A stretch of 64,000 bases of DNA. It comes from an uncultured Clostridium sp. Lineage in GTDB: Bacteria > Bacillota_I > Bacilli_A > RF39 > UBA660. The stretch covers positions 262,411 to 326,410 of the forward strand of contig CABULC010000002.1 in NCBI GenBank assembly GCA_902492325.1. The letters are read 5' to 3'. A program made the translations under genes and the position numbers. The notes beneath the pieces are model-generated. The model had not been told where the DNA came from. It searched no databases and was given only the letters and a program-made list of their open reading frames with translations. Below, piece by piece: positions 266 through 63,941 of this stretch (within the stretch, counting starts at the first letter, position 1; the number at the start of each line of letters is the position of its first letter).

Positions 266-307
266 ATAAAAAAAAGAACAACGTGCTATGAAGCATTAAT
301 TGTTCTT
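266..307 (-). terminator. Terminator of the minus-strand AAA operon
   Basis: 8-bp stem (aagaacaa/ttgttctt) spanning the AAA gene stop, followed on the minus strand by an 8-T run. Confidence 0.45.
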
Positions 308-1773
308 CCTTTTCCCCATTGTCTAATTTTATCAATCTTTTCAGGATTAATCTTACTAATTGAATAACATTTATCAAAACATTCTAATAAGTAAGCACGC
401 GTTAATTTAATATTATCAGCCACAATATTATATGAAATATCTCTTATAGCTGATTCTATATCTGATGATGCAAATCCTTCGCTTTTAGTAATTAATTCAC
501 TCATTAGAGTATCATCAACTTTAACTCCTAAGTATTTATTTAAATACATTGAAATTATTTCTTTTCTTTCATTATCATTTGGTAAATCTACAAAGAACAT
601 TTCATCAAATCTACCTTTTCTAAGTAACTCAGCAGGTAAGTTATCAACATTATTTGCTGTTGCTACTACAAATACTTCCTTTTGACATTCTTGTAACCAA
701 AATAGAAATTGTCCAATCATTCTTGAAGTTACGCCACTTGATTCATTAACACCCGCTAATCCTTTTTCAATTTCATCAATCCATAGAACACAAGGAGCAA
801 CATGTTCTGCAGTTTTTAGTGCATTTTTAAATTGTTCTTCAGTTTGTCCAACATACATTCCTTGTACAGTTGCTAAGTCAAGCAAGAATAGTGGAAGATT
901 CCAACTTTTAGATATTGCTTTAGCAGTTAAACTTTTTCCACAACCAGGAACACCGACTACTAAAATACCTCTTGGAGGTTTAATTCCTCTCTTTATTAGT
1001 TTTTCTTTATTTTCAACATCTAATAACTTTCTTTTTGAGCTAAGCCACTTTTTAAGATTATTAAGTCCACCATAGACAACATTATCAGTTTCAATTTTTT
1101 CAAGGCCTTCCATATTAGAAAACATCTTACTTTTGGCAAACTTAAGTTCAGTTAAATCACCTTTAGTAATACTTCTCTTAGCAATTAGAACTGATATAAC
1201 ATTTTTAATTTCAGCTTCACTCAATCCTAACAATATAACTGATGCTTCTTTAAAGTTACTATCATCCCATTCTATTGGAAATTGACCATTATATTTATCA
1301 ATAAATCTATGTAATAAATCATATATTTCTTTTTCATTAGGAAAACTTAAATCAATATTCATACCAAGTTTCTTTAAATTTGGCCAAATACTTTTATCAC
1401 TAATAACAATTATAGAACAAGATTTTTCTTCACAACTATTAACAACATCATATAGAAATCTTGTAACTAAATTATCTTCATTTAAGTTATCAACATCACT
1501 TAGTAAATAAGTAACATTCTTTTTATCTTTTATATCATTACTTATAAATGATAATATACCACCTAATGTTTTTTCATTACTAACAATTTCATTATTTTGA
1601 AGACTATACATACCTTTAGACATAGAGTGAACATAAATAGTAGCATTTAATTCACTATTTATTTCTTTCAACATAGATAAAATTCTATTTTTTTCCATTG
1701 TGTTGATTACTATAAATGGAATTCTAGCATGTAAATAACTATCTAGTTTTTCTTTTACTTCTTCGTAATTCAT
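286..1773 (-). CDS. Classic-clade AAA+ ATPase. C-terminal active AAA domain (Walker A GVPGCGKS, Walker B VLWIDEIE, second region of homology ATANNVDNLPAELLRKGRFDE). N-terminal ~250 aa looks like a degenerate, nucleotide-motif-less AAA-like domain
   Basis: ORF-track protein motifs; GGAGG RBS 7 nt upstream; ATGA start/stop overlap with upstream gene. Confidence 0.85.
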   Translation of the reverse strand: MNYEEVKEKLDSYLHARIPFIVINTMEKNRILSMLKEINSELNATIYVHSMSKGMYSLQNNEIVSNEKTLGGILSFISNDIKDKKNVTYLLSDVDNLNEDNLVTRFLYDVVNSCEEKSCSIIVISDKSIWPNLKKLGMNIDLSFPNEKEIYDLLHRFIDKYNGQFPIEWDDSNFKEASVILLGLSEAEIKNVISVLIAKRSITKGDLTELKFAKSKMFSNMEGLEKIETDNVVYGGLNNLKKWLSSKRKLLDVENKEKLIKRGIKPPRGILVVGVPGCGKSLTAKAISKSWNLPLFLLDLATVQGMYVGQTEEQFKNALKTAEHVAPCVLWIDEIEKGLAGVNESSGVTSRMIGQFLFWLQECQKEVFVVATANNVDNLPAELLRKGRFDEMFFVDLPNDNERKEIISMYLNKYLGVKVDDTLMSELITKSEGFASSDIESAIRDISYNIVADNIKLTRAYLLECFDKCYSISKINPEKIDKIRQWGKGRTINAS

Positions 1774-2207
1774 TCATTTTCCTCCAAATAAGCATTATTT
1801 ATAGTATTCATTATAAAAGTATCATCAGTAGAATAATTTTTCTTTATTTCATCTAATATTCTATTATTAGATTCCATAATTTTTCTACCTAATTGTACTT
1901 GATTTTCTTCACGAACCAGTTTAGAACTTGCTATTAAGAAATCTAAAGATACTTCATCAGTATATTCTTTAAATTCAATTGAAAATCTATTATCATCAAC
2001 ACCTATACTAGGAAGTTTATCTAATAAAACTCTATATGCATTATTAAGTCTATTTTGAATTAATAAAGATAAATGATCTATAAATCTAAAATATCTATCT
2101 CCAGCTAAGTCGACTTCTAAGCTATTAATTCTTTCAACAATACTTTCACTTCTAGGTTCGTCAGCTAAAGATTCTAAAAAATTAACTAAATCATAATATG
2201 ATATCAT
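1770..2207 (-). CDS. Hypothetical helical 145-aa protein, third gene of AAA operon
   Basis: ORF translationally coupled at both ends (ATGA overlaps); no recognisable motif. Confidence 0.6.
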   Translation of the reverse strand: MISYYDLVNFLESLADEPRSESIVERINSLEVDLAGDRYFRFIDHLSLLIQNRLNNAYRVLLDKLPSIGVDDNRFSIEFKEYTDEVSLDFLIASSKLVREENQVQLGRKIMESNNRILDEIKKNYSTDDTFIMNTINNAYLEENE

Positions 2208-2383
2208 AATTCACCTCTATCAACAGTATCAAATGGAGGTTCTAAATCCCAATCAGGAATCTTAATCATTTCATTTTCATCTTCTTTTTTTTCATTTTTT
2301 TTCTTTTTGTTATTTTCATCATTTTTAACATTTAAATTCTCATGATTATCAAGTTCAGTTTTTAATTCTTCATCTTTATTCAT
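2204..2383 (-). CDS. Small 59-aa K/E/N/D-rich ORF not in ORF track (MNKDEELKTELDNHENLNVKNDENNKKKKNEKKEDENEMIKIPDWDLEPPFDTVDRGEL)
   Basis: Hand translation of minus strand. AGGAGG RBS (rc of 2391-2400) 7 nt before ATG at 2383. Stop TGA overlaps ATG of the 145-aa gene. Fills the only gap in the operon. Confidence 0.45.
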   Translation of the reverse strand: MNKDEELKTELDNHENLNVKNDENNKKKKNEKKEDENEMIKIPDWDLEPPFDTVDRGEL

Positions 2384-2394
2384 AAAATAACCTC

Positions 2395-4080
2395 CTACTT
2401 AAAATTAATATAATTGTTTTTATCAAATGAATTAATATAATTTATTAGTTCATTTTTATATTTTAAATTACGTTTACATATAAATTTTATATCAACAATT
2501 TCTGCTATAGTGTTATTAAGTTCAAATAAGTATTTTTTAACAGTATCATTATATTCATTAATGATATCTTGTCTATTCTTAGATATTTCATATAAGAAAT
2601 ACATAAGCATTCCACCGCCAACAAATATAACAATAATACCTAAATATAATTTTATGAACGCTAAGATCAAACCAACAACAATAAATATCGCACAATATAC
2701 AGTTTTTGGAGAAATATATTGTTGTTCCTGAGAATCTGCTTCGAAAGGCTTTTTAACATATTCTGTTAAAGAATCTTGTAATTCTTTTTCATTACTTCCA
2801 TCTTTTGTAGTTCCAGTCCATTCATTAATTTTTATTTGAATGTCATTATCGTTAGATTCATCCTCATTACCAAATACTTCATCAAAACCTTTGACAATAT
2901 TTTGTTTCGTTAATGAAATAGCTAGTTTTTTTGTAGATAATGAAACATCATCTCTATTTAATATTATATTTGTAAGCTCATTGCCAAAGTTATTTTTAAT
3001 ATTTAATGTGTTATTATATATTTCATATTTTTTATTAGCTTCTTCAACATTTCCTTTGCATTCTATAATTAATTTATTTTTTAATATAGCTTTTCTAAGA
3101 TCAGCTTCATTTTCTTCATAACTAAATAATAAATTATTTAAAAGTTCATCTATACTTTTTTCTTTTTGATCATCTTTATCTAATAATCTTAAGAATTTAG
3201 CATAAGCATTGTTATAAGAGTAGGAAAGAGCTAATTTATTTTTTAGTTTATCAAAATCTTTAACATAGTCGGCAGAAAATGGATATTCACTATTTTCTAC
3301 TACATCAATAGTATCACTAAAAAACTCTCTCCATCTTTCTATTTGATAGTTATTAACATTATCATTACTACTAAGTTTATTACACCAATCATCTATATAA
3401 GAAAGAATCAAATCAGTCATTTTAATACTATAAGCATCATTAACAAGTGATTCTAAAACATTTATAATATCATTATCCATACTATTAGGATTTTGTGTGT
3501 CTAAATATCTTTTTAACCATTTAAGAGCAGTATCATTTCTATTAAGTCTTAGATGTATCAAACAAAAAAGTAATGATGTTTTACTATCATTTAAACTAAG
3601 AGCTTTATTTAGTGCTTTACGAGCTAATTTTCTTTCATTTCTAAACCATGCACATAATGCGACTAATGCATAAGATAAATAATAGTCTGGTGTATTTAAT
3701 AAAGATTGTTCACTTTGAGTAAGCAAAGTATTTTTCTTTATAGTATTTAAATCCATACTATTTAAAATACCATTTATCTTTCTACGAATTAAATCATAAT
3801 GTCCATATTTTTTATTTAGTTCATTTTCTTTTAATAATATTTCATTTTGAGCATTAGATACTAGTGAAGAACCTCTAACTTCTAACATAAAATCTTTTAT
3901 TTCTTGTTCTAAAGATTTAACATTTGTCTTAAGAGTATCTACTTGACTATTAAAATCATTAATTTGCCCGTTAATATCAACAACGTCACCAGCAACACTA
4001 GACATGTTTTCAGATAAAACTTTTAAACTTTTTTCTAGTGCATCCATATCTCTTTTTTGTATAGCAGTTATTGTTGTCAT
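2395..4080 (-). CDS. 561-aa membrane-associated protein. N-terminal coiled coil, TPR-like helical middle region, two-helix TM hairpin (residues ~455-500) and ~60-aa C-terminal tail. First gene of AAA operon
   Basis: ORF with GAGGTGG RBS; hydrophobic segment VYCAIFIVVGLILAFIKLYLGIIVIFVGGGMLMYFLY; stop TAG lies inside RBS of next gene. Confidence 0.7.
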   Translation of the reverse strand: MTTITAIQKRDMDALEKSLKVLSENMSSVAGDVVDINGQINDFNSQVDTLKTNVKSLEQEIKDFMLEVRGSSLVSNAQNEILLKENELNKKYGHYDLIRRKINGILNSMDLNTIKKNTLLTQSEQSLLNTPDYYLSYALVALCAWFRNERKLARKALNKALSLNDSKTSLLFCLIHLRLNRNDTALKWLKRYLDTQNPNSMDNDIINVLESLVNDAYSIKMTDLILSYIDDWCNKLSSNDNVNNYQIERWREFFSDTIDVVENSEYPFSADYVKDFDKLKNKLALSYSYNNAYAKFLRLLDKDDQKEKSIDELLNNLLFSYEENEADLRKAILKNKLIIECKGNVEEANKKYEIYNNTLNIKNNFGNELTNIILNRDDVSLSTKKLAISLTKQNIVKGFDEVFGNEDESNDNDIQIKINEWTGTTKDGSNEKELQDSLTEYVKKPFEADSQEQQYISPKTVYCAIFIVVGLILAFIKLYLGIIVIFVGGGMLMYFLYEISKNRQDIINEYNDTVKKYLFELNNTIAEIVDIKFICKRNLKYKNELINYINSFDKNNYINFK

Positions 4081-4150: not shown

Positions 4151-4579
4151 TTAGTAAAGTTCATTACATACACCAGGGTCAGGAGCATAAAAACAATGTC
4201 CTTTATATCTTCCTGTATTTCTTTGATTAAACCATGTACCTTTACATTCTTCATTTTTCTTAGGTCCATAAAACCATAGTGCATTAGTGGCAGGGTAGTA
4301 ATATTCTCCTTTTAATACTCTTTTAGCAAGTTCTTTTTCTTTTGTAGTAGCACTTCCACTATTAAAAAGACTACTATTTGTTCCAACAAAACCACCTGGA
4401 TTTTGATAAACTACATCAGTAATACTTCTTATATTTTTAAAGTCTAAACAATTAGCTATAGCTCTATTAACTATAACATTTCCAACCATAAGCATGGCAA
4501 GATCACCTTCGGCAAGTGCTTCGGCTCTCATTAGTCTAGCACATAAATCTAATTCTTTAGTTGAATATTTAATAAGCAT
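4151..4579 (-). CDS. SleB/CwlJ-family cell wall hydrolase (spore cortex-lytic-type domain). True start at MLIKYS, not the track start that runs antisense through tRNA-Trp
   Basis: Motifs LCARLMRAEALAEGDLAMLMVGNVIVNRA and VVYQNPGGF; AGGTGA RBS before ATG at 4579. Confidence 0.75.
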   Translation of the reverse strand: MLIKYSTKELDLCARLMRAEALAEGDLAMLMVGNVIVNRAIANCLDFKNIRSITDVVYQNPGGFVGTNSSLFNSGSATTKEKELAKRVLKGEYYYPATNALWFYGPKKNEECKGTWFNQRNTGRYKGHCFYAPDPGVCNELY

Positions 4580-4674
4580 AAAATCACCTAATATATTGTA
4601 TGCAATAACAAAAAATATTGATTTGTTAAAATTTATATAGTATAATAATGTTGCTTTACAAAAAAGTGACACGT

Positions 4675-4749
4675 AGGGGTATGGTGTCAGTGGTAGCATG
4701 CCGGTCTCCAAAACCGTTGGGGAGGGTTCGAGTCCTTCTACCCCTGCCA
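4675..4749 (+). tRNA. trnW: tRNA-Trp (anticodon CCA), 3' CCA encoded
   Basis: Cloverleaf by eye: acceptor aggggta/tacccct, anticodon loop cuCCAaa, T-arm ggttcgagtcc; near-identical to Bacillus tRNA-Trp. Confidence 0.9.
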
Positions 4750-4761
4750 TATAAGATTAAT

Positions 4762-5355: not shown

Positions 5356-5480
5356 AAATCCTCCTATCTTTATAGATTAATTATATTATGAACTATTTAA
5401 AAAAGAAATACTTTTTTCACTAAATATACATTAAGTTTTCACATGAATAATTATTTTCTATAAGTCATAGAATTAGTATA

Positions 5481-5956: not shown

Positions 5957-7570
5957 ATGAATAAAACAGAGAAAATAGATATCGGAAAAATTGTTTTAAA
6001 TGAAGAGACAAATAAAAAGTTTTTGGATTTCGATAACAATCGAGATATTTTTTATTTTGGAAATAAAGAAGATTATTATTGTAAAGTATACAATTATACA
6101 AGAAAACTAGTTTATAAATCAAGAAATGCAGGAGAAATGATTTTAAATAAATCTTTTGTATCGAATATAATAAGAATATTAAATCACGATGTTCTTATCG
6201 CTAATAAATCAAAAGAAATGGGGTATCTAGAATTATTACACTATTTAATAACTTATCAAGATACTATTAACATTATAAAATTAGGTGGTTATTGGCCATA
6301 TACTGAAGAAGACTCAAATATAAGAAAAGAAGCAATAGAACTTTTAGAAAAACAAAATAATGAAATAGAAGAATTTTTAAAATCAATAGACTATGATAAT
6401 AAAATAAAAGAATTACTTAGTAAGTATAAAGAATATACAACATATAAAGGAGAACTACCTGATGATATATTTTTAGAATTAGATTTGATATTCACAACTG
6501 CTCATAACATACCTAAAGAATATGTTGATTTATATATGAAAAACGTTACTAGCTTTAATAAATCTCTTTCATTAGAAGCTTTTAGAAATGTTATTACAAG
6601 TTTAATTAGTAATTATGCTAAAGAACATGGAACATATTGTTATACTGAAATATGCAAATTAGATTATGGAACATTAGGAAGTTATGATAATCACGTAATT
6701 ACCCTTTCAACATCAAGTTTTAATTCATATTTTTTAGGTCATTCATCAAAGAAAATAGAATTGTTCGACACAATATTCCATGAGTTAATTCATTTGTTAC
6801 AAGATAAGATATATAGATCAAAGTTTATTACTTATGATTATATATTAATGCTTAAAGATTTTTTACTAACAGGTACAATAGAGGAATCATATTTAAAAAG
6901 AAACTATATGAGTTTAACACCAGAAATAGATGCTAGAAAAAATGGCCATTTAGAAACAGATAGTTACCTTCTTTCTTTAGGAATCGCATCACGAACAAAT
7001 ACATTTGAAAAAAATCTATTAGACGAAAGAAGACATGGAACTGATTTTAGATATTACGAAGGAAAAGAATACACAGTAGATACTCTATTAGACGAAAAAA
7101 TGCCTCATGTAGTTGAAGAATTTAAAAAGAATTATAAAATCGATATATTTGAGGAATATCCTGTTATGAAATTAATGTTTCATAATGATGGAAGAAGAAA
7201 AACAACATTAGAATTGTTAAAAGAAAGAGAATCTATAGAAGATAGAGAAATTATTTCGCAAATAGATGAGATTCTAATAAGAAGAAAAATGTCAAAAGAG
7301 AATTGTGAAAAAGATTTAAAAGAGCTTATATTAGATAGTACATTATCGATTGATAAAACAGAATATATTAGAAGACTTAACATGTTATTAACAGCAAAAG
7401 AAAGAAAAAAGATACTAATAAAATTAAAATCACTTAGTTTATTATTAAAAGATTTAGGAAGAAGTTTCTTAATATTCTTAGGTGAACTAGAGGATATAGA
7501 AGCAAGAATTAATGATGAAAAAATAGATATGATTTTATCTAAAAAGATAAATAAAGAATCTAAAAATTGA
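5957..7570 (+). CDS. Hypothetical 537-aa protein with HExxH motif (FHELIHLLQD); possible zincin-like metallopeptidase
   Basis: Long ORF; motif only. Confidence 0.55.
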   Translation: MNKTEKIDIGKIVLNEETNKKFLDFDNNRDIFYFGNKEDYYCKVYNYTRKLVYKSRNAGEMILNKSFVSNIIRILNHDVLIANKSKEMGYLELLHYLITYQDTINIIKLGGYWPYTEEDSNIRKEAIELLEKQNNEIEEFLKSIDYDNKIKELLSKYKEYTTYKGELPDDIFLELDLIFTTAHNIPKEYVDLYMKNVTSFNKSLSLEAFRNVITSLISNYAKEHGTYCYTEICKLDYGTLGSYDNHVITLSTSSFNSYFLGHSSKKIELFDTIFHELIHLLQDKIYRSKFITYDYILMLKDFLLTGTIEESYLKRNYMSLTPEIDARKNGHLETDSYLLSLGIASRTNTFEKNLLDERRHGTDFRYYEGKEYTVDTLLDEKMPHVVEEFKKNYKIDIFEEYPVMKLMFHNDGRRKTTLELLKERESIEDREIISQIDEILIRRKMSKENCEKDLKELILDSTLSIDKTEYIRRLNMLLTAKERKKILIKLKSLSLLLKDLGRSFLIFLGELEDIEARINDEKIDMILSKKINKESKN

Positions 7571-7595
7571 CAAAACATTATAAATAGTATATAAT
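7567..7595 (+). promoter_or_regulatory. Consensus sigma-A-type promoter TTGACA-17-TATAAT
   Basis: ttgaca at 7567-7572, exactly 17-nt spacer, tataat at 7590-7595. Confidence 0.6.
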
Positions 7596-7601
7596 CATGT
7601 G

Positions 7602-7745
7602 CAAGTGAGGGGATATAAGATATAAATATATTGAGCTGTCCCGGGGAAACCTACACGAACTTTTATAAAGTACGGAGTCGCTGTTAAGTAGTGGATTTCG
7701 TGCTTTTTTAATTCTTTACGTTATCCATCTATTAGAAAGGAGGGA
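7602..7745 (+). promoter_or_regulatory. ~140-nt structured 5' leader with attenuator-like hairpin (cacgaa...ttcgtg + ctttttta) ahead of the RBS. Candidate riboswitch or attenuator of unknown class
   Basis: 6-bp long-range inverted repeat at 7654-7659 and 7697-7702 followed by T-run; AAGGAGGG RBS at 7737. Confidence 0.3.
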
Positions 7746-7752
7746 ATATTAT

Positions 7753-8307
7753 ATGGTAGGAGCATCAAGAATGCCAGACTTTTTTGCCATGGGAACTATT
7801 GAATCTGAGTTATTAACAGAAGTCCAAAAAAGACTTAAATATAAAAATGGAAACATTAGTGAAATGTCAAAAAGTGAACAATTAAAAATGGAAACACTAG
7901 ACTTATTAGAAAGTCTTGGTTATCCAATGGATGAATTTGGAACATATTTATATAAAGATGTAATTATGTCTATTAGAGAGCAAATTGGTGTAGTTGAAAC
8001 AAGAGAAGATGTTATTGAAGCTTCAGCAGTTTTAGAAGAAGCTAAATCAGCATTCTCACAACTATACTTCAATTTAGCAAGAAATGAAAGAGATATTGGA
8101 GTAAAAGAATATCATAGAATTCTATCTAGATCATTATCAAAGATTGATTATAAAAAGGCATCACCAGAACTATTATACAAAGTATATGGTAATTTCCCTT
8201 TTGAGATGGACTATGGCGAAAATGCTTTTGCTCTAGCAAACTTTTTAAATAGACAAGTAGATAAACCTTTATGTAGAAAACTAACAAATTCACCTAGTAT
8301 TTATTAA
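7753..8307 (+). CDS. Stand-alone Spo0A C-terminal (DNA-binding) domain-like protein; no receiver domain
   Basis: Alignment from memory to B. subtilis Spo0A C-domain: [21 protein letters not shown] ~ [47 protein letters not shown] ~ [35 protein letters not shown] ~ PTNSEFIAMVADKL. Confidence 0.5.
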   Translation: [184 protein letters not shown]

Positions 8308-8321
8308 GATTAGGTGATACT

Positions 8322-8350
8322 ATTAGAGTAACCTAGCGTTACTCTATTTT
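8322..8350 (+). terminator. Terminator
   Basis: gagtaac-ctagc-gttactc hairpin followed by tatttttt. Confidence 0.6.
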
Positions 8351-8368: not shown

Positions 8369-9349
8369 ATGAGTATAATAGAAGTTAAAAACTTATCAAA
8401 AACATTCGAAGTTAAATTAAAAGAAAAAGGTTTAAAAGGAAGTCTTAAGTCAATATTTAAACCTAAGTATAAAACTATTAAAGCTGTTAAGAATATAAGT
8501 TTCAATATAGAAAAGGGTGAAGTTATAGCATTCATAGGACCAAATGGGGCAGGTAAAAGTACTACTATCAAGATGTTAACAGGAATACTTTATAAAGATA
8601 AAGGAACTATTAATATAGATGGTTTAGATCCAGAAAAAGATAGAAAAAAACTTGCTAATGAAATAGGTACTGTATTTGGTCAAAAAGAACAACTATGGAT
8701 GCATCTAACTCCATATGATAACTTTAAATTTTTCGGAGCTATTTATGACATACCAGAATCAATAGTTGAAAAGAAAATAGAAGAATTTAAAGTATTATTT
8801 GAACTAGATGAATTTATAAATACACCAGTACGTAATCTAAGTTTAGGTCAAAGAATACGTTGTGAGATAGTAGCATCACTAATACATGAACCAAAAATAT
8901 TATTCTTAGATGAACCAACTATAGGTCTAGACCCAGTAGTAAAAGAAAATATTCGTACACTTATTAAAAGAATGAACAAAGAATATAAAACAACAATATT
9001 CTTAACAAGTCACGATGTATCAGATATAGAAAAACTATGTAAAAGAGTTATCATAATAAATAATGGTGCTTTAGTACTAGATGATTCAATGGAAAATTTA
9101 AAATACCATTACCTACACAAAAAGATATTAGAAGCTAAAATGAAAGAAAAAGTAAATCTAAATGATGAAGAAGGTATAACTATATTAAAAGATAAAGGAT
9201 ATAACTTGAAAATAGAAGTAGATACTAGTAAACGTAGTATAAGTGATGCTATAAAATTATTAAATCCAGATAATATAATAGATATTAATATATCAAATAC
9301 GCCTCTTGAAGATATAATAAGCGAAATATATAAAAAAGAGGATAAATAA
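8369..9349 (+). CDS. ABC transporter ATP-binding protein (ABC-2 type)
   Basis: Walker A GPNGAGKST, signature LSLGQRIR, Walker B ILFLDEPT; AGGAGG RBS. Confidence 0.9.
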   Translation: MSIIEVKNLSKTFEVKLKEKGLKGSLKSIFKPKYKTIKAVKNISFNIEKGEVIAFIGPNGAGKSTTIKMLTGILYKDKGTINIDGLDPEKDRKKLANEIGTVFGQKEQLWMHLTPYDNFKFFGAIYDIPESIVEKKIEEFKVLFELDEFINTPVRNLSLGQRIRCEIVASLIHEPKILFLDEPTIGLDPVVKENIRTLIKRMNKEYKTTIFLTSHDVSDIEKLCKRVIIINNGALVLDDSMENLKYHYLHKKILEAKMKEKVNLNDEEGITILKDKGYNLKIEVDTSKRSISDAIKLLNPDNIIDINISNTPLEDIISEIYKKEDK

Positions 9350-10140
9350 TGAAAAAGTATTTATTTATATTTAAAACAGAAATAATAAATAGTTTACAAT
9401 ATATGTTTAACTTATTATCAGGCTTTATAGCATACATAATAATGATATATGTATTTTTATGCTTATGGAAATATATGTATAGTGACCCAGCATCTCTTAT
9501 AAATGGTTATAATCTAAATCAAATGATATGGTATATAATTATTACTGAGATATTATGGATGAGCCTAGGTGGTAAAAAAATATGTCGTAAGATAACTAAT
9601 GATGTAAAAAATGGTAACATCGCATATAACATAAATAAACCTTATAACTATATCTTATATAATCTATCTAGCAATTTAGGAAGTATATTCATAAAGTTTA
9701 TAGTATTTACAGTACTAGCTATGATATTAGGATTTATATTTTTAGGAACATTTCCTCAGTTAAATATATTATCTATTTTAGCAGTACTACTTACAAGCAT
9801 TTTAGCAACTACAATAAGTATATTAATAATGATAGGTATAGGTTTATTCTCATTTATAATAGAAGATTCAACACCATTATACTGGGTATATAGTAAATTT
9901 ATATTAGTCTTAGGAACAATATTTCCAATAGAATTCTTTAGTGGAATATTAAGAACAATATTAAAATATAGTCCAATATATGTTGTATCTTATGGACCAG
10001 CTAAATTATTTGTAAACTTTAGTACAAGTGAATTTATAGCAATAATTATTTCACAATTAATATACTTAGTTATATCTTATTTAATAGCTACATTTATATA
10101 CAAGAAAGGGGTGAAAAAACTAAATGTTAACGGAGGTTAA
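9349..10140 (+). CDS. ABC-2 family permease
   Basis: 6-TM hydrophobic ORF, start overlaps ATPase stop. Confidence 0.7.
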   Translation: MKKYLFIFKTEIINSLQYMFNLLSGFIAYIIMIYVFLCLWKYMYSDPASLINGYNLNQMIWYIIITEILWMSLGGKKICRKITNDVKNGNIAYNINKPYNYILYNLSSNLGSIFIKFIVFTVLAMILGFIFLGTFPQLNILSILAVLLTSILATTISILIMIGIGLFSFIIEDSTPLYWVYSKFILVLGTIFPIEFFSGILRTILKYSPIYVVSYGPAKLFVNFSTSEFIAIIISQLIYLVISYLIATFIYKKGVKKLNVNGG

Positions 10141-10918
10141 AAATCAATTAAAAGTAAATTATTTATCTATAAAGTATGGTCTTATGAGAGAAATGGTAAA
10201 TAAGTTTTCATTCTTAGCAAATATAATCTTTATGATTATAAATAACTCATGTTTTATCATACAATGGGTAGTACTTTATTCATTAAAAGATAACATTGGT
10301 GGATATACTTTTAAACAAATGTTATTACTTTGGGGGATCGCAGCAAGTACCTTCGGAGTTTCAAGATTCTTCTTTAAGAAAGCATTTAGTTTATCAGAAA
10401 CAATAAATACTGGTAAATTAGATGCGTTCTTAGTACAGCCTAAAAATGTATTATTAAGTGCAATAACTACTGACGTAGAAGTTTCAGCTATAGGAGACTT
10501 AATCTATGGATATGTAATACTTATCATATATGGAATAACTTTAAAAAACTTTTTATTGTTTACAATATTTACTATATTAGGTGGCCTAATAATAGCTTGC
10601 GTTTCAGTAATAGCAAATAGTCTATCATTTTGGTTTAACATGACAGATGTTTTAGCAGACACAATAAATAACATGATGATAATATTTGGTACATACCCTA
10701 AAGATATATTTAATGGAATAGTAAAGATAATTCTTTATACAATAGTTCCAGTTGGTATCGCAAACTATATACCAATAGACTTAATAATAAACTTTAATAT
10801 ATATGGATTCTTATTAGTATTCACAGTAACAATATTTTTAGTAGTTTTATCATTCTATATATTTAACAAAGGATTAAAAAGATACTCTTCAAGTAACTTG
10901 ATGAGTTCAAGAATATAA
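10124..10918 (+). CDS. ABC-2 family permease (second subunit)
   Basis: Hydrophobic ORF, overlapping previous gene; AGGGGTGA RBS. Confidence 0.7.
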   Translation: MLTEVKNQLKVNYLSIKYGLMREMVNKFSFLANIIFMIINNSCFIIQWVVLYSLKDNIGGYTFKQMLLLWGIAASTFGVSRFFFKKAFSLSETINTGKLDAFLVQPKNVLLSAITTDVEVSAIGDLIYGYVILIIYGITLKNFLLFTIFTILGGLIIACVSVIANSLSFWFNMTDVLADTINNMMIIFGTYPKDIFNGIVKIILYTIVPVGIANYIPIDLIINFNIYGFLLVFTVTIFLVVLSFYIFNKGLKRYSSSNLMSSRI

Positions 10919-35475: not shown

Positions 35476-35661
35476 ATGAATAAAGAGTATAAAATAGGAA
35501 GCAAAGTTATTATGAAAAAACCACATCCTTGTGGAACAAACCTATGGGAAATCACAAGAGTAGGTGTTGATATTAAAATCAAATGCATTAAATGTGGTAG
35601 AAGCATAATGATGGATAGAATTGAATTTGATAAAAAACTAAAGAAAGTTGAGGAAATTTAA
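35476..35661 (+). CDS. DUF951 family small protein
   Basis: KIGSKVIMKKPHPCG...CIKCGR pattern. Confidence 0.55.
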   Translation: MNKEYKIGSKVIMKKPHPCGTNLWEITRVGVDIKIKCIKCGRSIMMDRIEFDKKLKKVEEI

Positions 35662-37193
35662 TGTTTAAAAAGAAATTAAAATTAAGTCCTATAATGACCT
35701 TTATAATTTTAATCTTCGTAACAATACTTTTAAGTGGCTTTCTACATTTAGTTAACACTCAAGGTGAGTATACAACAGTTAATAAAGTATCAAGTGAACT
35801 TATTAACAATGTAGTAGAAGTAAAAAGCTTATTTAGTACTAAAGGTATTAAACATATTATAACAACAGCGGTTAATGGATTTGTTAACTTTGAACCATTA
35901 GGTGCACTTATAATAGTTCTTATAGGAATAGGAGTTCTAGAAAAAACTGGTTTCATGAAAACATTCTTCACGATATTAACTAGAAATTCTAAGAGATACA
36001 CAATAACATATATACTAGTATTCTTAAGTTTAATATTTTCATTATTAGGTAAAGTTGGATTTGTAGTTATGTTACCAATAGGAGCACTACTATTCAAATA
36101 TGGAAGAAGAAATCCACTTGGTGGAATTATTGCATCGTTTGCATCTCTTTCATTTGGATATGGAATAAATGTGTTCATGTCAGCAAATGATAGTTCATTA
36201 TTAACAATGACATTAAATGCAGCAAACGTAACAGATCCAAAATATAAAATTGGAGTATTCTTCGCATTATTTATAATGATAGCAGTATTAATAATTACAT
36301 CTATAGTATTTACTCATATTACAGAGAAAAAAATAATGCCTAAGTTACCTAGAATGGAAACAGAGGAAGAAGAAGTAAAAATCACAAATAGAGAATTAAG
36401 AGGATTAATTATAGGGTTAGGTGCTGGATTCTTATATACATTAATAATTATTTATATGATAATCCCAGGACTACCTTTATCAGGAGCATTACTTGATTCA
36501 AGTAGTACAAAATATATAGATATGCTTTTCGGAGTAAATTCTATGTTTAATAAAGGATTCATATTTATAGTTACATTATTATTTGTAATAATTGGACTTG
36601 GATATGGATTAATGACAAAAACAATAAAAAATAATAATGATATAGCTGAAAGTTTAGGCTACTCACTAGATGGAATTGGAAGTATATTAGTACTATTATT
36701 CTTCGCATCATTATTTATTAATATTTATGATGAAAGCGGAATAGGAATGGTATTAGTAGCATGGACATCTAAAATAATAGGTGGACTAAAGTTTTCAGGA
36801 ATCGGACTAATATTAACAGTATTTGCATTAGTAGCGATAGTTAATATATTCTGTCCAAGTTCAACATTAAAATGGAGTATGCTATCAGGAAATACAGTAA
36901 CAGTATTAATGGCAGAAAGTATTAGCCCAGAATTTGCTCAAGTAATTTTCTCAGCAGCAGATTCAGTAACTAAAGGACTTACACCATTATTCATGTACTA
37001 TGTAATATATATAGCATTCTTAGAAAAATATAATAAAAGCAATGAAACAATTACATTATTTGGTAGTGCAAAATACATGATACCATATGCAACATATATA
37101 ACTGTTATTTGGGCAGTAATATTAGTAGCATGGTACTTAGTTGGACTACCAATAGGAATTAATACATTACCGGGGGTAACATATGGCGCTTAA
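35661..37193 (+). CDS. Polytopic membrane transporter (AbgT/YfcC-like, tentative)
   Basis: 510-aa multi-TM ORF. Confidence 0.5.
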   Translation: MFKKKLKLSPIMTFIILIFVTILLSGFLHLVNTQGEYTTVNKVSSELINNVVEVKSLFSTKGIKHIITTAVNGFVNFEPLGALIIVLIGIGVLEKTGFMKTFFTILTRNSKRYTITYILVFLSLIFSLLGKVGFVVMLPIGALLFKYGRRNPLGGIIASFASLSFGYGINVFMSANDSSLLTMTLNAANVTDPKYKIGVFFALFIMIAVLIITSIVFTHITEKKIMPKLPRMETEEEEVKITNRELRGLIIGLGAGFLYTLIIIYMIIPGLPLSGALLDSSSTKYIDMLFGVNSMFNKGFIFIVTLLFVIIGLGYGLMTKTIKNNNDIAESLGYSLDGIGSILVLLFFASLFINIYDESGIGMVLVAWTSKIIGGLKFSGIGLILTVFALVAIVNIFCPSSTLKWSMLSGNTVTVLMAESISPEFAQVIFSAADSVTKGLTPLFMYYVIYIAFLEKYNKSNETITLFGSAKYMIPYATYITVIWAVILVAWYLVGLPIGINTLPGVTYGA

Positions 37194-38289
37194 AGCAGGA
37201 ATTATAGGTCTTCCAAACGTAGGAAAAAGTACATTATTTAACGCAATAACAAAAAAGAACATCTTAGCAGCTAACTACCCATTCGCAACAATCGATCCAA
37301 ATGTTGGGGTAGTTACTGTACCAGATAAAAGATTAGAAACATTAAATGATATGTATATGCCAGAAAGATTAATACCAACTCAATATGAATTTATTGATAT
37401 AGCTGGTTTAGTAAAAGGAGCTTCAACTGGAGAAGGATTAGGAAACAAATTCTTAGCAAACATTCGTGAAGTTGATGCAATTGTACAAGTAGTAAGATGT
37501 TTTGAAAACAAAGATATTATTCATGTAGAAGGTAATATTGATCCGGTACGTGATATAGAAATAGTTAACTATGAACTTATTCTAAGTGACCTTGAAATAG
37601 TAGAAGGAAGACTATCTAGAATAGAAAAGAAAGCAGTAACATCAAATGATAAAGAAGCACTTTATGAAGTAGCACTTCTAAAAAAATTACAAGGAATTCT
37701 AAGTAGTGGGAAAATGCTTAGATTAGAAACATTTGATGAAAAAGAAAATAAATTAATTAAAACATACAATTTAATAACACAAAAACCATTCATTTATTTA
37801 GCAAATGTATCAGAAGAAGATTTACTATTAAAAGATAATGAATATGTAAATAAAGTACGTGAATACGCTGCTAAAGAAAATGCAAGTGTGGTACTTATGT
37901 GCGCTAAAATAGAAAGTGAACTTTCAGAGTTAGATGAAGAATCTAAGCAAGAATTTTTAAGAGATTTAGGAATTCAAAATAGTGGTTTAGACCAACTAAT
38001 TCATAACACATATCATTTACTTGGACTTAAGACATTCTTTACAGTAGGTAAAGATGAAGTAAGAGCATGGACATTTAAAGATGGAATGAAGGCACCAGAA
38101 TGTGCAGGACTTATTCATACAGACTTTGAACGTGGATTCATAAAAGCAGAAGTAATGAGTTATGATGATTTAGTAAACTATGGAAGTGAACTAAAAGTAA
38201 AAGAAGCAGGTAAAGCAAGACTTGAAGGAAAAGAATATGTAATGCAAGATGGAGATATTTGCTTATTTAGATTTAATGTTACAAAATAG
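37183..38289 (+). CDS. ychF: Ribosome-binding ATPase YchF
   Basis: G1 [16 protein letters not shown] domain C-terminus. Confidence 0.95.
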
Positions 38290-38307
38290 ACCGAAAGGTC
38301 TTTTTTG
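38290..38307 (+). terminator. Terminator after ychF
   Basis: gaccgaaaggtc hairpin plus tttttt. Confidence 0.65.
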
Positions 38308-38355
38308 ATGTATAAAAAAAGATACTTCATTTGAAGTACCTTTGATTTTAATTAC

Positions 38356-38754
38356 TTATTTTATATCAATGAATTTCTTTGATTGTTTTTGTTCTTCTTT
38401 AGGGAAGTTAATCTTTAAAACACCATTATTGAAGTGTGCTTCAATAGATTTTTCATTAACGTTACCAACGTTAAATTGTCTTCTGAATGTACCAAATGAT
38501 CTTTCTTTACGATAGTAATTCTTTTCTTTATCTTCTTTTTCTTCATGTTTAGTAGCTACAATAGTAAGAATTCCATCATCTAAGTCGATTTTAACATCAT
38601 CCTTATTAAATCCTGGAACATCCATATCAATATGAATTTTACCGCCTTTTTCATAAATGTCGCATTTCATGTCATTCTTTGGCATTTTTGGCATTGTTGG
38701 TACAAAATCATCAAAGAAATCATCTAAATAAAACTTTTCTGGTAATAAACTCAT
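38356..38754 (-). CDS. Hsp20/alpha-crystallin small heat shock protein
   Basis: ACD pattern; start moved to second ATG with AGGAG RBS. Confidence 0.8.
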   Translation of the reverse strand: MSLLPEKFYLDDFFDDFVPTMPKMPKNDMKCDIYEKGGKIHIDMDVPGFNKDDVKIDLDDGILTIVATKHEEKEDKEKNYYRKERSFGTFRRQFNVGNVNEKSIEAHFNNGVLKINFPKEEQKQSKKFIDIK

Positions 38755-38898
38755 TATTTTCATCTCCTAACAATTATAATTATACTCAATAATTAGCACT
38801 TGTCAATAGAAAGTGCTAATTTTATAAAACTTTTTTGGAAAAATTTTACACTATTATTATATACATATTTGTAAATAATATAACTAGGAGGAAAAATA

Positions 38899-39096
38899 AT
38901 GAAAGAAGTACCTAATGTAATATCAATAAAAGACTTATTATACATAGAAGATATGCTTAATTGGAATTTTATTATGAATAAAAAAGTATATGCATATCTA
39001 GAATGTGTAGAGGATGAAAAAATAATAGACTTATTAACTAAAATAAAGAAAATGTATTTTAAACATTATAAGGATTTACTAGAAGTTTTAGAGTAG
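38899..39096 (+). CDS. Small protein paired with CotF-like gene
   Basis: ORF only. Confidence 0.35.
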   Translation: MKEVPNVISIKDLLYIEDMLNWNFIMNKKVYAYLECVEDEKIIDLLTKIKKMYFKHYKDLLEVLE

Positions 39097-39105
39097 GAGG
39101 ATATT

Positions 39106-39414
39106 ATGGAAGAAATTAAAAATAAATGTGAACAAACACCAAAAGATGAATGTATGAGCGAAGAAGATATATTAAATGATATTCTTTTATCAGAAAAAAA
39201 TATATCTAATAGTTATAGTGTTGCTATAAATGAAATGAGTAATAAATACTTATATAAAAAAGTAATGAGTATATTTGAAGACACTAAAGATATGGCTCGT
39301 GATATATTCAATTTAATGTTTGAAAAAGGTTGGTACACAGTACCAGTAGAAGAAGATAAGAAAATAGAAAAGTCATATACTAAATATAATAATAAACTTA
39401 GTGAGTTAAGTTAA
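39106..39414 (+). CDS. Spore coat protein F-like (Coat_F domain)
   Basis: EEDILNDILLSEKNISNSYSVAINE pattern. Confidence 0.55.
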   Translation: MEEIKNKCEQTPKDECMSEEDILNDILLSEKNISNSYSVAINEMSNKYLYKKVMSIFEDTKDMARDIFNLMFEKGWYTVPVEEDKKIEKSYTKYNNKLSELS

Positions 39415-39492
39415 AACAAAGATTAACGAAAGTTAATCTTTTTAATTTATAAAGTTCTTTTTTAAGTATATAAATTGTGATAAAATATTATT

Positions 39493-40149
39493 ATGAAAAA
39501 GATAGTAATAGTATTTTTAAGTTTTTTATTTTTTTTAACAAATGTATATGCTGAAAGAAAAGAGGTAACATTTGAATCTTGTGTTGATGGAGATACAATA
39601 AAAGTATTGATAGATGGAAAGAAAACAACAGTAAGATTTTTAGCAGTAGATACTCCTGAAACTAAACATCCTAAAAAGGGAGTGGAACCATACGGAAAAG
39701 AAGCAAGCGATTATACATGTAATAGAGTTAAAAATGCAAAAAAACTTGAAATTGAATATGATAGCGGTAGCTCTAAAACTGATAAATATGAAAGAGCACT
39801 TGGATGGATATTTGTAGATGATTCACTACTTCAAAAAGAATTAATACAAAAAGGATATGCTAAAGTAGCATACTTATATGGTAAATATATGTACACTGAA
39901 GAATTAGAGCAAGAAGAAGAAAAAGCACAAGAAGCAAAACTTGGAGTATGGAGTGATGAAGTACAAAATCAAACAAATAGTACCACTAAAGAAGAAGTAA
40001 AAGATACTAAAACAGAAAACAAAGAAGAAAAATCATTCGTAGAAGAACTAATAGATAAATTGCTAGATGCTATTAAAGATGCTATAAATAATCTATTTAA
40101 AAAATTAAAGAAAATAATTACAAAAGAAATTAATAAAATATTTGACTAA
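39493..40149 (+). CDS. Secreted thermonuclease (SNase-like)
   Basis: Signal peptide, VDGDTIKV and VRFLAVDTPE motifs. Confidence 0.8.
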   Translation: MKKIVIVFLSFLFFLTNVYAERKEVTFESCVDGDTIKVLIDGKKTTVRFLAVDTPETKHPKKGVEPYGKEASDYTCNRVKNAKKLEIEYDSGSSKTDKYERALGWIFVDDSLLQKELIQKGYAKVAYLYGKYMYTEELEQEEEKAQEAKLGVWSDEVQNQTNSTTKEEVKDTKTENKEEKSFVEELIDKLLDAIKDAINNLFKKLKKIITKEINKIFD

Positions 40150-40197
40150 AAAATATAATATATTATAATAATATGTACTATATTGGAGAAAAAAGCT

Positions 40198-41349
40198 ATG
40201 AAAAAAGATCAAAAATATTTAATTGCATTAGAACTTAATCTTAGTAAACTTAGTAAAAAGAATAGAGATAAAATAGTTTCTAAGTATTATGATATTATTG
40301 AAGAAGAAAAAACCAAGAAAAGAAAAATAACAAGTATTCTTAAAGATTTAGGTAAACCAGAAGAAGTTGCTAAAAGAGAAATAGAAAATCTTAAAAAGAA
40401 TAATAAACTTAAAGATAAAGTAAATAATATTATAAAGAGTATAAAGAATAAATTCAAAAAGAAAGATAAACCTAAAAAAGAGAAAAAAGAAAAAGTAAAA
40501 AAAGAGAAAACTAAAAAAGAAAGTCTATTTTCTAGAATTAAAAATAAAATTAAAAGAAAAGATACATTAAAAAATAATATTGAAGATGTTATAGAAGAAT
40601 CTAAAGAAGAAATAAGTAATGTAACTGAAATAGTAACTGAAAAAAAGATATTTGAAAGTAAAAGTTCTAGAATAAAAAGAATCATTTATAAGACTTTAGG
40701 ATTACTTTTAACAATAATACTACTATTTGTATGGTTATGGTTAGTAATTGTCTTTATGGCCTCTATATTTGCTTTATTAGATGGTGTAAAACTATATGGA
40801 ATTAATATTGCATTACTTGGAATAGTACTTCTAGTATTAACAATAGTTATATTAATTAACAAAAGTATATTTAGAAAGAAAATAAGTTTAAAGTGGTCAC
40901 TAATATTTATAATATCATTTATAGTTATTATAGCATTCGGAGTAACATTATCACTAAAAGAAATATCCAAAATTAAAACAACTCATGATGTTAGTGATAA
41001 ATATACTATGACAAGATCATTTACAACATATAAAATGCCAAGTGATAATAAACCATTATATATTACATTTAATAGTAATTATAAAACCAAATATATAGTA
41101 GAATATGATGAATCTATGAAAGGCAAAATAGGAGTAGAAGTAAAATATTATGAATGTTATTATGACTATTTTATAAAGAAAGGTTCAGATAATATTTATA
41201 TATCATTAAAACTAAATAAAAGAGATCGTTTAAGTGTATATATTGACGACTTAAAAGAAGGAAAAATATACGATAATGATGAATTAGAAAGATATACTGT
41301 AAAAATAACTGGTAGTAAAAGTGATATGGAAAAGGTAGTTATAGATTAA
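40198..41349 (+). CDS. DUF1700-like membrane protein with K-rich linker
   Basis: N-terminal LIALELNLSKLSKKNRDKIVSKYYDII; central TM helices. Confidence 0.45.
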   Translation: MKKDQKYLIALELNLSKLSKKNRDKIVSKYYDIIEEEKTKKRKITSILKDLGKPEEVAKREIENLKKNNKLKDKVNNIIKSIKNKFKKKDKPKKEKKEKVKKEKTKKESLFSRIKNKIKRKDTLKNNIEDVIEESKEEISNVTEIVTEKKIFESKSSRIKRIIYKTLGLLLTIILLFVWLWLVIVFMASIFALLDGVKLYGINIALLGIVLLVLTIVILINKSIFRKKISLKWSLIFIISFIVIIAFGVTLSLKEISKIKTTHDVSDKYTMTRSFTTYKMPSDNKPLYITFNSNYKTKYIVEYDESMKGKIGVEVKYYECYYDYFIKKGSDNIYISLKLNKRDRLSVYIDDLKEGKIYDNDELERYTVKITGSKSDMEKVVID

Positions 41350-61266: not shown

Positions 61267-61466
61267 TATAATAATTTTGAGCAATAGTGTTTGGAGTTAA
61301 TCCTACTTTAGCGAGTCGTTAAAGAATCAAAATTAGATGAAATATTAAATGGTAATATTACGAGGGACTTTCCTACACGAGGTGTAGCCGCTTCATTGCA
61401 TTCCGCTTTAAGTCCATCTTCATATTACAATATCATTAAGTATTGCTCTTCCAGGAGGTAATAAAT
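61267..61466 (+). ncRNA. Candidate retron msr/msd non-coding RNA
   Basis: Directly upstream of retron RT on same strand. Ec86-like cttTAGCGAG element at ~61302-61313 (putative branching-G context). Long imperfect hairpin 61352-61370 / 61410-61428 with internal ctacac-gag-gtgtag hairpin. a1/a2 not confidently located. Confidence 0.4.
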
Positions 61467-62417
61467 ATGTGGAAATATATTGATAAAGAAAAATCAAAAG
61501 AATTTTTATTATCTCTTGGATTATTAAATGATAACATAAGTGATAAAGATAAAATAATTAAATTGTATTCTATAAGTAACAACGTAGAAAAGAACTATAA
61601 AATATTTAAAATAAAGAAAAGAAATGGTAAATATAGAACTATATACGAACCTAATTATACTTTAAAAGAAATACAAAAAAATATTCTAAATAATATATTA
61701 AATAATAAAAAAATATCTGTTTATGCCAAAGCATATCATAAAGGTATAGGACTAATTGATAATGCAAAAGAACATGTTAATAAAAAGTTAATACTTAAAT
61801 TAGATATAAAAGATTTCTTTGAAAATATTAGTTTTATTGATGTATATAATAGTTGCTTTGAAATAGAATATTTTCCTAAAGAAATAGGTATTCTTTTAAC
61901 TCATTTATGTACTTATAAAGAGCATCTTCCACAAGGAGCTCCAACTTCATCATATATTTCAAATCTTGTACTAAAAGAATTTGATGAATATATCGGAGAA
62001 ATTTGTAAAGAAGAAAATATATCATACACTAGATATTCTGATGATATGACATTTAGTGGAGACTTTAATCCATCAAAGATTATAACTATTGTTAAGAAAG
62101 AGTTAAGAAAATATAACTTAGAGCTTAACAACGAAAAGATACATGTAATTAGAAATCATAAATGTCAAAAAGTAACAGGATTAGTTGTAAATAATAAAGT
62201 ACAAACACCAATAAACTATAGAAAAAATATTAGAAAAGAAATATTTTATATAAAAAAATATGGACTAGATTCACACCTAGAACATAATAATATTAAGAAT
62301 AGTAATAAATATTTAAATGAACTTTACGGAAGAATATTATTTGTATTACAGATAAACAACACAAATGAGTTTAAAGAATATAAAGAATTTATTTCAAAAT
62401 TAAAATCACATAATTAA
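61467..62417 (+). CDS. ret: Retron-type reverse transcriptase (Ec86/Eco1-like)
   Basis: RTIYEPNYTLKEIQKNIL, LDIKDFFENI, LPQGAPTSSYISNLVL, YTRYSDDMTFSG (YxDD), retron hallmark KVTGLVVNNKV; 317 aa with no maturase, endonuclease or HNH domains; GGAGG RBS before ATG 61467. Confidence 0.9.
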   Translation: MWKYIDKEKSKEFLLSLGLLNDNISDKDKIIKLYSISNNVEKNYKIFKIKKRNGKYRTIYEPNYTLKEIQKNILNNILNNKKISVYAKAYHKGIGLIDNAKEHVNKKLILKLDIKDFFENISFIDVYNSCFEIEYFPKEIGILLTHLCTYKEHLPQGAPTSSYISNLVLKEFDEYIGEICKEENISYTRYSDDMTFSGDFNPSKIITIVKKELRKYNLELNNEKIHVIRNHKCQKVTGLVVNNKVQTPINYRKNIRKEIFYIKKYGLDSHLEHNNIKNSNKYLNELYGRILFVLQINNTNEFKEYKEFISKLKSHN

Positions 62418-63867: not shown

Positions 63868-63941
63868 GCAGGTGTAGTTTAATGGTAGAACTTCAGCCTT
63901 CCAAGCTGCTAACGTGGGTCCGATTCCCATCACCTGCTCCA
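63868..63941 (+). tRNA. trnG: tRNA-Gly (anticodon TCC)
   Basis: gcaggtgtagtttaatggtagaacttcagccTTCCaagctg...ggtccgattcccatcacctgctcca, near-identical to Bacillus tRNA-Gly(UCC). Confidence 0.9.

Follow-up and report, generated by a model that had tools for sequence, protein, structure and literature searches.

A conserved leader RNA that overlaps a terminator precedes the gene of a small protein with a predicted Spo0A effector-domain fold in uncultured gut Bacilli

In a 64,000-nucleotide (nt) stretch of DNA from an uncultured Clostridium sp. of the order RF39 (contig CABULC010000002.1, positions 262,411 to 326,410; hereafter, the window), we analysed the gene at 7753–8307 together with the ~150-nt leader that lies between its promoter and the gene and carries a terminator hairpin and U-run. 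The leader contains a strongly conserved, covariation-supported structured RNA that has no entry in Rfam 15, a conclusion we regard as well supported, and the folded RNA and the terminator use the same strands. The gene encodes a 184-amino-acid (aa) protein whose structural model has the fold of the Spo0A effector domain; "S0AC-like" is the name coined in the present analysis for its family. We lean somewhat towards an explanation in which a receiver-less helix-turn-helix (HTH) regulator of Spo0A fold is expressed when a new ON-type leader is stabilised, within a regulon of exporters and acetyltransferases. A preliminary description, made from the sequence alone, had proposed a separately transcribed and apparently attenuated paralog of the Spo0A C-terminal domain acting at 0A boxes in a spore-former; its view of the transcription unit held up, and its view of the function did not find support.

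The leader RNA and its terminator

Separate transcription and attenuation are both borne out by a full-consensus promoter, a terminator with a U-run in the leader and a second terminator 3' of the gene (Table 1). The transcript is expected to start a few nt 5' of the leader RNA. A perfect or near-perfect promoter stands at an equal distance before most leader copies elsewhere, and no motif is kept across these copies 5' of the −35 element. The attenuator does exist, but it is not private to the S0AC-like gene: copies of this structured RNA are widespread, and the window leader is one among them. Covariance model R1 finds a single copy in the window.

Table 1. Positions in the window of the S0AC-like gene, its leader and the adjoining operon
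Feature	Position	Strand	Details
Sigma-70-type promoter	7567–7595	+	TTGACA 7567–7572, 17-nt spacer, TATAAT 7590–7595; 12/12 consensus
Four-stem leader RNA (aptamer-like)	7602–7682	+	Covariance model R1, 68 bits, E=3e-18
P1	7605–7608 with 7678–7681	+	GUGA with UCGC; UCAC in other copies
P2	7610–7615 with 7637–7642	+	6 base pairs
Internal loop	7616–7618 opposite 7633–7636	+	UAA opposite GAGC; leads into P2a
P2a hairpin	7619–7632	+	
P3	7643–7652	+	GAAA loop; G-G/A-G...C-C/U-U, length varies between copies
J3/4	7653–7655	+	ACA
P4 hairpin	7656–7674	+	Variable between copies
J4/1	7675–7677	+	GAG
Leader intrinsic terminator	7670–7709	+	Hairpin 7670–7703, U-run 7704–7709
Ribosome-binding site	7737–7744	+	AAGGAGGG; read off the sequence, kept at homologous loci
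S0AC-like gene	7753–8307	+	184-aa all-helical protein, Spo0A effector-domain fold (both from the model)
Second terminator-like hairpin and U-run	8324–8346	+	3' of the S0AC-like gene, before the ABC operon; terminator scan
ABC-2 transporter operon	8369–10918	+	ATPase 8369–9349, ABC2_membrane_6 permeases 9349–10140 and 10124–10918 (Pfam)

A search with a two-block pattern matched the leader at no fewer than 120 metagenome loci (at least that number) and nowhere in viral contigs, and the covariance model recovered more divergent copies beyond the original pattern. In the upstream regions of loci that had been selected by protein, the leader is nearly invariant between genomes whose S0AC-like proteins are only ~35% identical. 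Two blocks, C-C/U-U-A-C-A-C and G-G-A-G-U-C-A/G-C, are nearly invariant though they lie outside the search pattern, and the unpaired nucleotides of the leader, junction bases included, are invariant as well.

The stems themselves change in step. Across 91 pattern-selected sequences, 96.4% of cells in the stems are paired. The figure is 96% in the set of 95 distinct sequences, for which shuffled and slid controls fall to 18–44%. At pair 10–52, where the pattern permits any combination, we found AU in 61 sequences, GC in 30 and no mismatch among the 91; at pair 86–104 the same 91 sequences have AU in 49 and GC in 41. Double changes occur at 14 of the 21 pairs (95 distinct sequences), and covariation extends to five of the six pairs of P2 and also to P2a, P3 and P4. 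P2 alternates wholesale between a GGAGAUA/UAUCUC type and a UGUGUA/UACACA type, with 100% pairing. The minimum-free-energy (MFE) fold of the isolated aptamer is exactly the four-stem structure, at −17.8 kcal/mol. The UAA/GAG internal loop resembles the UAA/GAN tertiary motif.

Neither the isolated window leader nor that of locus L010 has a relevant match at E≤10 among the 4227 families of Rfam 15, and in the window as a whole only tRNAs reach the gathering threshold. The best Rfam match of the window leader, caiA, was rejected, as its 23 bits are far from the gathering score (55.5) and it covers only the terminator and the ribosome-binding site; SpF39 and the other Rfam matches on the L010 leader are noise. 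Literature searches returned no description of either the leader RNA or the S0AC-like protein family.

The 5' arm of the window terminator is made of strands that the aptamer also needs, namely the P4 3' arm, J4/1 and the P1 3' strand, and the terminator and the fully folded aptamer are therefore mutually exclusive. Folding the full leader by MFE gives −29.1 kcal/mol for the terminator conformer versus −20.1 kcal/mol for the conformer with P1 and P4, a gap of ~9 kcal/mol. This arrangement is general: a hairpin with a U-run is present in 126 of 143 unique leader copies, and the 5' arm of that terminator includes the 3' strand of P1 in 120 of those 126. Because the terminator conformer is the more stable and shares a strand with P1, the default state would be OFF, turning ON when the aptamer is stabilised.

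We also considered the CACGAA repeats of the leader as 0A-like DNA sites and rejected them as a general feature, since the copy in the terminator arm is explained by pairing with the conserved GUCAC and just 27 of 143 leaders have a third copy. This extra CACGAA, which repeats the first 6 nt of the terminator 5' arm, lies between the U-run and the ribosome-binding site in those 27 unique leaders (seen in L009–L016 and L019, e.g. L013 5887–5944). In transcripts that read through, the 3' arm of the terminator is free, and the extra CACGAA could pair with it.

The S0AC-like protein and its relation to Spo0A

The gene is real: the open reading frame (ORF) proposed in the preliminary description begins with ATG, has exactly the extent given there, and encodes an N-terminus that is kept in homologues. 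GGAGG lies 8–12 nt 5' of the S0AC-like ATG. A word-indexed search found 20 homologues at 40–99% identity, and an exhaustive profile search found 248 clusters (50% identity level) at E≤0.001. Nearly all of the best 150 of the 248 representatives are 170–215 aa long; the two longest of these 150 have 316 and 233 aa. No homologue bears a name beyond "hypothetical protein" in any source, and none carries a Pfam domain. For the 184-aa protein itself, Pfam returned nothing relevant (APP1_cat, at E=0.04, is noise) and NCBIfam returned nothing. The family occurs mainly in metagenome-assembled genomes (MAGs) of low-GC gut Bacilli, and the identical protein is present on 397 contigs, the largest of 1.29 Mb. 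The window, with 26% G+C, is 94% identical to the human-gut MAG "Bacilli bacterium HGM10772", and one homologous locus belongs to Ca. Faecimonas intestinavium, of the GTDB order RF39 and family CAG-611 (PMC8035907).

An AlphaFold2 model of the protein, built from 18 sequences, has eight helices and a pLDDT of 81.6. In this model a domain of approximately residues 43–168 is preceded by residues 1–42, which contain an additional helix at ~10–31. Another helix (84–98) is inserted between the second helix of the domain and the HTH, helices 103–112 and 117–128 form the putative HTH, and the tail (170–184) is disordered. Seven of the top eight Foldseek matches are chains of 1lq1 and 1fc3, with TM scores of 0.71–0.77 (target-normalised), and the model reproduces the six-helix effector-domain fold with HTH of 1FC3/1LQ1. 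As modelled, then, the protein has the Spo0A effector-domain fold. The full-length alignment to that domain proposed earlier stands at the level of fold, over approximately residues 43–168, and fails at the level of sequence, with residues 1–42 outside the domain; in place of the supposed ~30-aa insertion we find a net insertion of ~16–24 aa, the model helix 84–98. The absence of a phospho-receiver was correctly seen: the protein has only 184 aa and no match to Response_reg (PF00072). Unlike in Spo0A, no receiver fusion was seen among the best 150 of the 248 representatives, the 316- and 233-aa members being uninspected.

To call the protein a Spo0A paralog was an over-claim. The preliminary description had staked that claim on a match to Pfam Spo0A_C (PF08769), and there is none at E≤10; identity to Spo0A_C is 12–14%. 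When family members were scanned singly against Pfam, one of 116 matched Spo0A_C (E=0.0024), amid equally weak unrelated matches. Searches of the PDB, with the single sequence (phmmer) and with 18- and 116-sequence profiles, did not retrieve 1FC3 or 1LQ1. An hhalign comparison with a 108-sequence Spo0A_C alignment of low diversity (Neff 2.1; only close Bacillus-type sequences) was colinear, matching residues 43–166 with Spo0A_C 1–110, at P=0.075; global mode gave a meaningless result, and only 17 columns aligned against a single Spo0A_C sequence. Within the P=0.075 alignment, G56-x-P58-x4-G63-x-Y65-L66-Y67 corresponds to G-V-P-x4-K-G-Y-L-Y of Spo0A, a turn between the first two helices (A and B) that the two proteins appear to share, and G56, P58, G63, Y65, L66 and Y67 are kept across the S0AC-like family. 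Judged by model and motif, the S0AC-like protein is probably a very remote homologue of Spo0A_C.

Like the isolated Spo0A C-domain, which is constitutively active, the S0AC-like protein has no receiver to inhibit it. It differs from Spo0A_C in the ~42-aa additional N-terminal segment, in the inserted helix and, it appears, in the residues kept on the recognition helix; its setting is one of exporters, acetyltransferases and a leader RNA, whereas that of Spo0A_C is sporulation. The best-kept stretches of the family are LG-Y/F-PMDExGT-Y/H-LYK and S-x-F/L-Y-x3-A-R-N/D...G-x-K/x-x-F/Y-H, the latter on model helices 103–112 and 117–128. The region of Spo0A around E213/R214/R217 (B. subtilis numbering) reads the 0A box. 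The S0AC-like recognition-helix motif is G-x-K-x-F/Y-H-x-x-I; the Spo0A helix appears to differ from this motif, and residue-level alignment to Spo0A is unreliable.

The proposed role as a modulator or competitor at 0A boxes is left unsupported by this apparent difference in the HTH motif, by the exporter context and by the lack of enrichment of TGTCGAA, which occurs once in the window, within a coding region, against two occurrences expected by chance. Nor is a spore-former evident from the window, where no sporulation gene was found among the ~30 ORFs scanned; these include PBP1A, Ddl, Mur ligases, CTP synthase, FeoB, phosphoketolase and ParA. A candidate GerA operon at 35661–41349 was rejected, its ORFs being an AbgT transporter, YchF and a HAAS-domain protein. 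The nearest hint of sporulation is a SleB-like Hydrolase_2 ORF that scores 27.8 bits against the SleB cutoff of 236.5. The listed start of this ORF (4151–4750, − strand) overlaps a tRNA gene on the opposite strand (4675–4746, +); its homologues align over only ~175 of 199 residues, and its true start is probably further in. The order RF39 is predicted to retain spo0A along with many sporulation genes and may sporulate (PMC10868615), and on that basis the host may be a spore-former.

Genes behind the leader and beside the S0AC-like gene

With a relaxed pattern we found at least 184 leader copies in 135 loci, 155 of them with a callable downstream ORF. In these 155, the leader precedes a member of the S0AC-like family (two sub-clusters) 49 times, GNAT acetyltransferases of three families ~33 times, and 23 times the ABC ATPase of an ABC-2 operon matching that of the window. 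The other clients are proteins of unassigned function with 142 aa (17 copies), 263 aa (13), 288 aa (6) and 359 aa (5), the remainder being singletons. The unbiased figure comes from loci picked by the S0AC-like protein alone, where 17 of 18 evaluable loci have the leader.

Complete leader units occur in tandem in 12 cases. The aptamer and terminator may stand twice before one gene, or an array may carry one copy for each of several consecutive small genes (examples are L034 81–279, L040 1975–2173, L024 830–1046 and L047 5400–7404). Locus L047 (12.6 kb) has three leader copies within 2 kb.

The ABC-2 operon lies 3' of the S0AC-like gene in the window and in L001–L005, L010, L011, L013, L015, L016 and L020, and this synteny holds down to ~35% S0AC-like identity. 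Compared to the window, L010, L011, L013, L016 and L020 have ABC ATPases that are ~85% identical, permeases that are ~60% identical and S0AC-like proteins that are ~35% identical, which suggests that the ATPase is under unusually strong constraint or was recently transferred. In the window, the 61-nt spacer before the operon holds no credible separate promoter, so the operon is probably transcribed by read-through that starts at the promoter under leader control. A second leader copy fills the spacer between the S0AC-like gene and the ABC operon in L013, L014, L015 and L020. L006–L008 have no ABC operon but retain the gene and its leader.

A distant branch of the family (L141, L142 and L144), at 20–24% identity, keeps the family motifs and has no leader. 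Its S0AC-like genes sit 5' of an MFS transporter gene (MFS_1) with a putative promoter that coincides in part with TTGTTGCATATGCAACAA, a perfect palindrome of 18 bp (L141 4630–4650, with equivalent sites in L142 and L144). The palindrome is a candidate operator for the S0AC-like family. This arrangement is the one familiar from local DNA-binding regulators encoded beside their exporters, and it argues that the basic job of the family is independent of the RNA.

The leaderless S0AC-like genes have another short 5' untranslated region (UTR) after a consensus promoter, GUGUUGGGGGUAUAGUC...CCUGCACA (~3930–3990 in L141, L142 and L144); in L017, also leaderless, the corresponding 5' UTR is GUGUUAAGGGGUAUUAGGCACA (~5400–5480). 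It faintly recalls the GUGAGG...CCUACAC blocks of the main leader and might be a reduced relic of it.

Elsewhere in the window, a 537-aa ORF directly 5' of the leader (5957–7570, +) has an HExxH motif (FHELIHLLQ) and matches no Pfam family; it is hypervariable, being 47–53% identical in L002–L005 versus 90–97% for every neighbouring gene. A 324-aa ORF at 61443–62417 (+), just 5' of a tRNA gene (63868–63938), has an RVT_1 domain (E=4e-23) and may represent a retron, the remnant of a group II intron or a reverse transcriptase system of another kind. A CDC48/FtsH-like AAA ATPase at 286–1773 (−) shows sub-threshold similarity to the anti-phage ATPase IteA and is adjoined by two ORFs of no family (1770–2207 and 2395–4080, −); the region 286–4080 (−) may be a defence or accessory module.

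What the leader and the protein might do

The explanation we favour starts from what the analysis shows: a match in fold, a structured RNA that competes with a terminator, a set of associated genes and a conserved gene order. The consensus promoter would fire into the four-stem leader, where the terminator would form by default and keep the gene OFF; a signal that stabilises the folded RNA would turn the S0AC-like gene ON, and with it, by read-through, the ABC operon. The protein would be a DNA-binding regulator with a specificity of its own, other than for the 0A box, and its function would be tied to the adjacent exporter, ABC-2 here and MFS in the distant branch. Taken together, the leader's clients would form a signal-induced regulon that resembles the export and acetylation of a compound. 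The leader would then most likely represent a new class of orphan riboswitch, and the S0AC-like protein would be what it controls most often.

Several known systems invite comparison. The adenine switch pbuE/ydhL is an ON-type transcriptional riboswitch in which the 3' strand of P1 doubles as the 5' arm of the terminator, and tandem riboswitches exist. The leader resembles such ON riboswitches in its conserved multi-stem aptamer, where the stems covary and the junction nucleotides are invariant, and in its direct overlap with an intrinsic terminator. Both a conserved aptamer supported by covariation and an expression platform that competes with it, as expected of a riboswitch, are present. Like riboswitches, too, it begins at the 5' end of the transcript, occurs in tandem units and serves several unrelated client families. 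Unlike known riboswitches, it matches nothing in Rfam 15 and has no assigned ligand, and the gene it most often precedes encodes a putative regulator, not an enzyme of biosynthesis or a transporter. BglG/LicT-RAT, the PyrR binding loops and the ANTAR targets are protein-dependent antitermination leaders made of single short hairpins. In these systems, as here, a conserved RNA competes with a terminator, several operons share the element, and the regulator gene often lies behind its own target (autoregulation). The present leader is a ~75-nt four-stem junction, unlike their single hairpins, and neither the S0AC-like protein nor any client protein that was compared with Pfam has a CAT/PRD, ANTAR or PyrR domain. 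With respect to the exporter, the closest parallel we draw is B. subtilis BltR with blt-bltD, an efflux pump and a spermidine acetyltransferase. The S0AC-like locus likewise has a small HTH protein beside an exporter and GNAT acetyltransferases in the same regulon; it differs in its Spo0A-type rather than MerR/TetR-type fold, in its control by an RNA attenuator and in having no assigned substrate.

A number of points weigh against the explanation we favour. DNA binding by the S0AC-like protein, its target site and its regulation of the exporter are matters that we infer, as is the nature of the signal. The surroundings of the window promoter contain no operator-like repeat, and the palindrome of the distant branch is limited to three closely related loci. 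The link to Spo0A_C was not significant at the level of sequence in any test, leaving homology to the predicted fold and one short motif. P1 is invariant and so has no support from covariation; it is consistent with the structure model but unproven. The metagenome loci were chosen by the RNA pattern, which means that the gene-association counts are not an unbiased census, and the genes controlled by the leader are mostly of unassigned function. Finally, the near-obligate pairing of RNA and protein is unusual for a metabolite riboswitch and fits a protein–RNA partnership equally well.

This last point leads to an alternative in which the S0AC-like protein is an antiterminator that binds RNA or the nascent transcript and stabilises the leader before its own gene (positive autoregulation) and before the GNAT, ABC and other clients. 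It would act much like the BglG/LicT-RAT or PyrR systems, though through an HTH of Spo0A-type fold. Such a role would account for the near-obligate coupling in the protein-selected loci and for the S0AC-like family being the commonest client; it is also consistent with the invariance of the unpaired RNA nucleotides, with the HTH motif being the best-kept part of a fast-evolving protein and with a leader architecture that requires a stabilising factor. However, the HTH fold is a classical double-stranded DNA-binding one and the sole structural relative, 1lq1, binds DNA; the leaderless distant branch keeps the motifs beside an MFS gene with a palindromic, operator-like promoter; and metabolite riboswitches are the RNAs that typically show tandem units and a junction of several stems with invariant bases. 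We therefore consider an antiterminator possible, if unlikely. That the leader is the founding member of a new ON riboswitch class for a ligand without a known riboswitch, or else that the Spo0A-fold protein is the first Spo0A-type antiterminator partner, is a statement to which we give an equal chance of holding and of failing.

It seems improbable that the likeness to Spo0A_C is convergent or a bias of modelling and that the protein does not bind nucleic acid at all, serving instead as, for example, an accessory or immunity subunit of the exporter. The low identity to Spo0A_C, the uniformly non-significant profile tests, a structure predicted from 18 sequences and the tight linkage of the gene to transporter operons would fit such a role, yet the kept motifs fall on the two helices equivalent to an HTH, and the gene persists in L006–L008 despite the absent ABC operon. 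Least probable of all, in our view, is the reading of the preliminary description, in which a receiver-less Spo0A paralog binds 0A boxes without phosphorylation and modulates or competes with Spo0A in a spore-former. It draws on the Spo0A_C-like fold, the apparently shared G-x-P-x4-G-x-Y-L-Y signature, the weak PF08769 match in a single member and the prediction that RF39 genomes keep spo0A and many sporulation genes (PMC10868615). Against it stand the lack of a significant Spo0A_C profile match, a recognition-helix motif apparently unlike that of Spo0A, 0A boxes that are no more frequent in the window than chance predicts, and neighbours and co-regulated genes that are exporters and acetyltransferases rather than sporulation genes, of which the scanned ORFs of the window contain none.

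In the usual view, the effector domain of Spo0A is a module specific to sporulation and joined to a receiver. Its fold, as predicted here, now appears in a receiver-less family that current profile libraries do not recognise and in a setting other than sporulation; if this is confirmed, the use of the Spo0A fold would be wider and older than the control of sporulation. Taken alone, the protein is a moderately interesting new family of known fold, and it is the leader RNA that raises the interest of the locus considerably. The leader is abundant in uncultured gut Bacilli, including at least some RF39, whose physiology is almost unknown. Whether it is an orphan riboswitch or one half of a new RNA–protein antitermination pair, its defined regulon would offer an experimental route to the signal that these bacteria monitor, and likewise to the function of several unannotated gene families.

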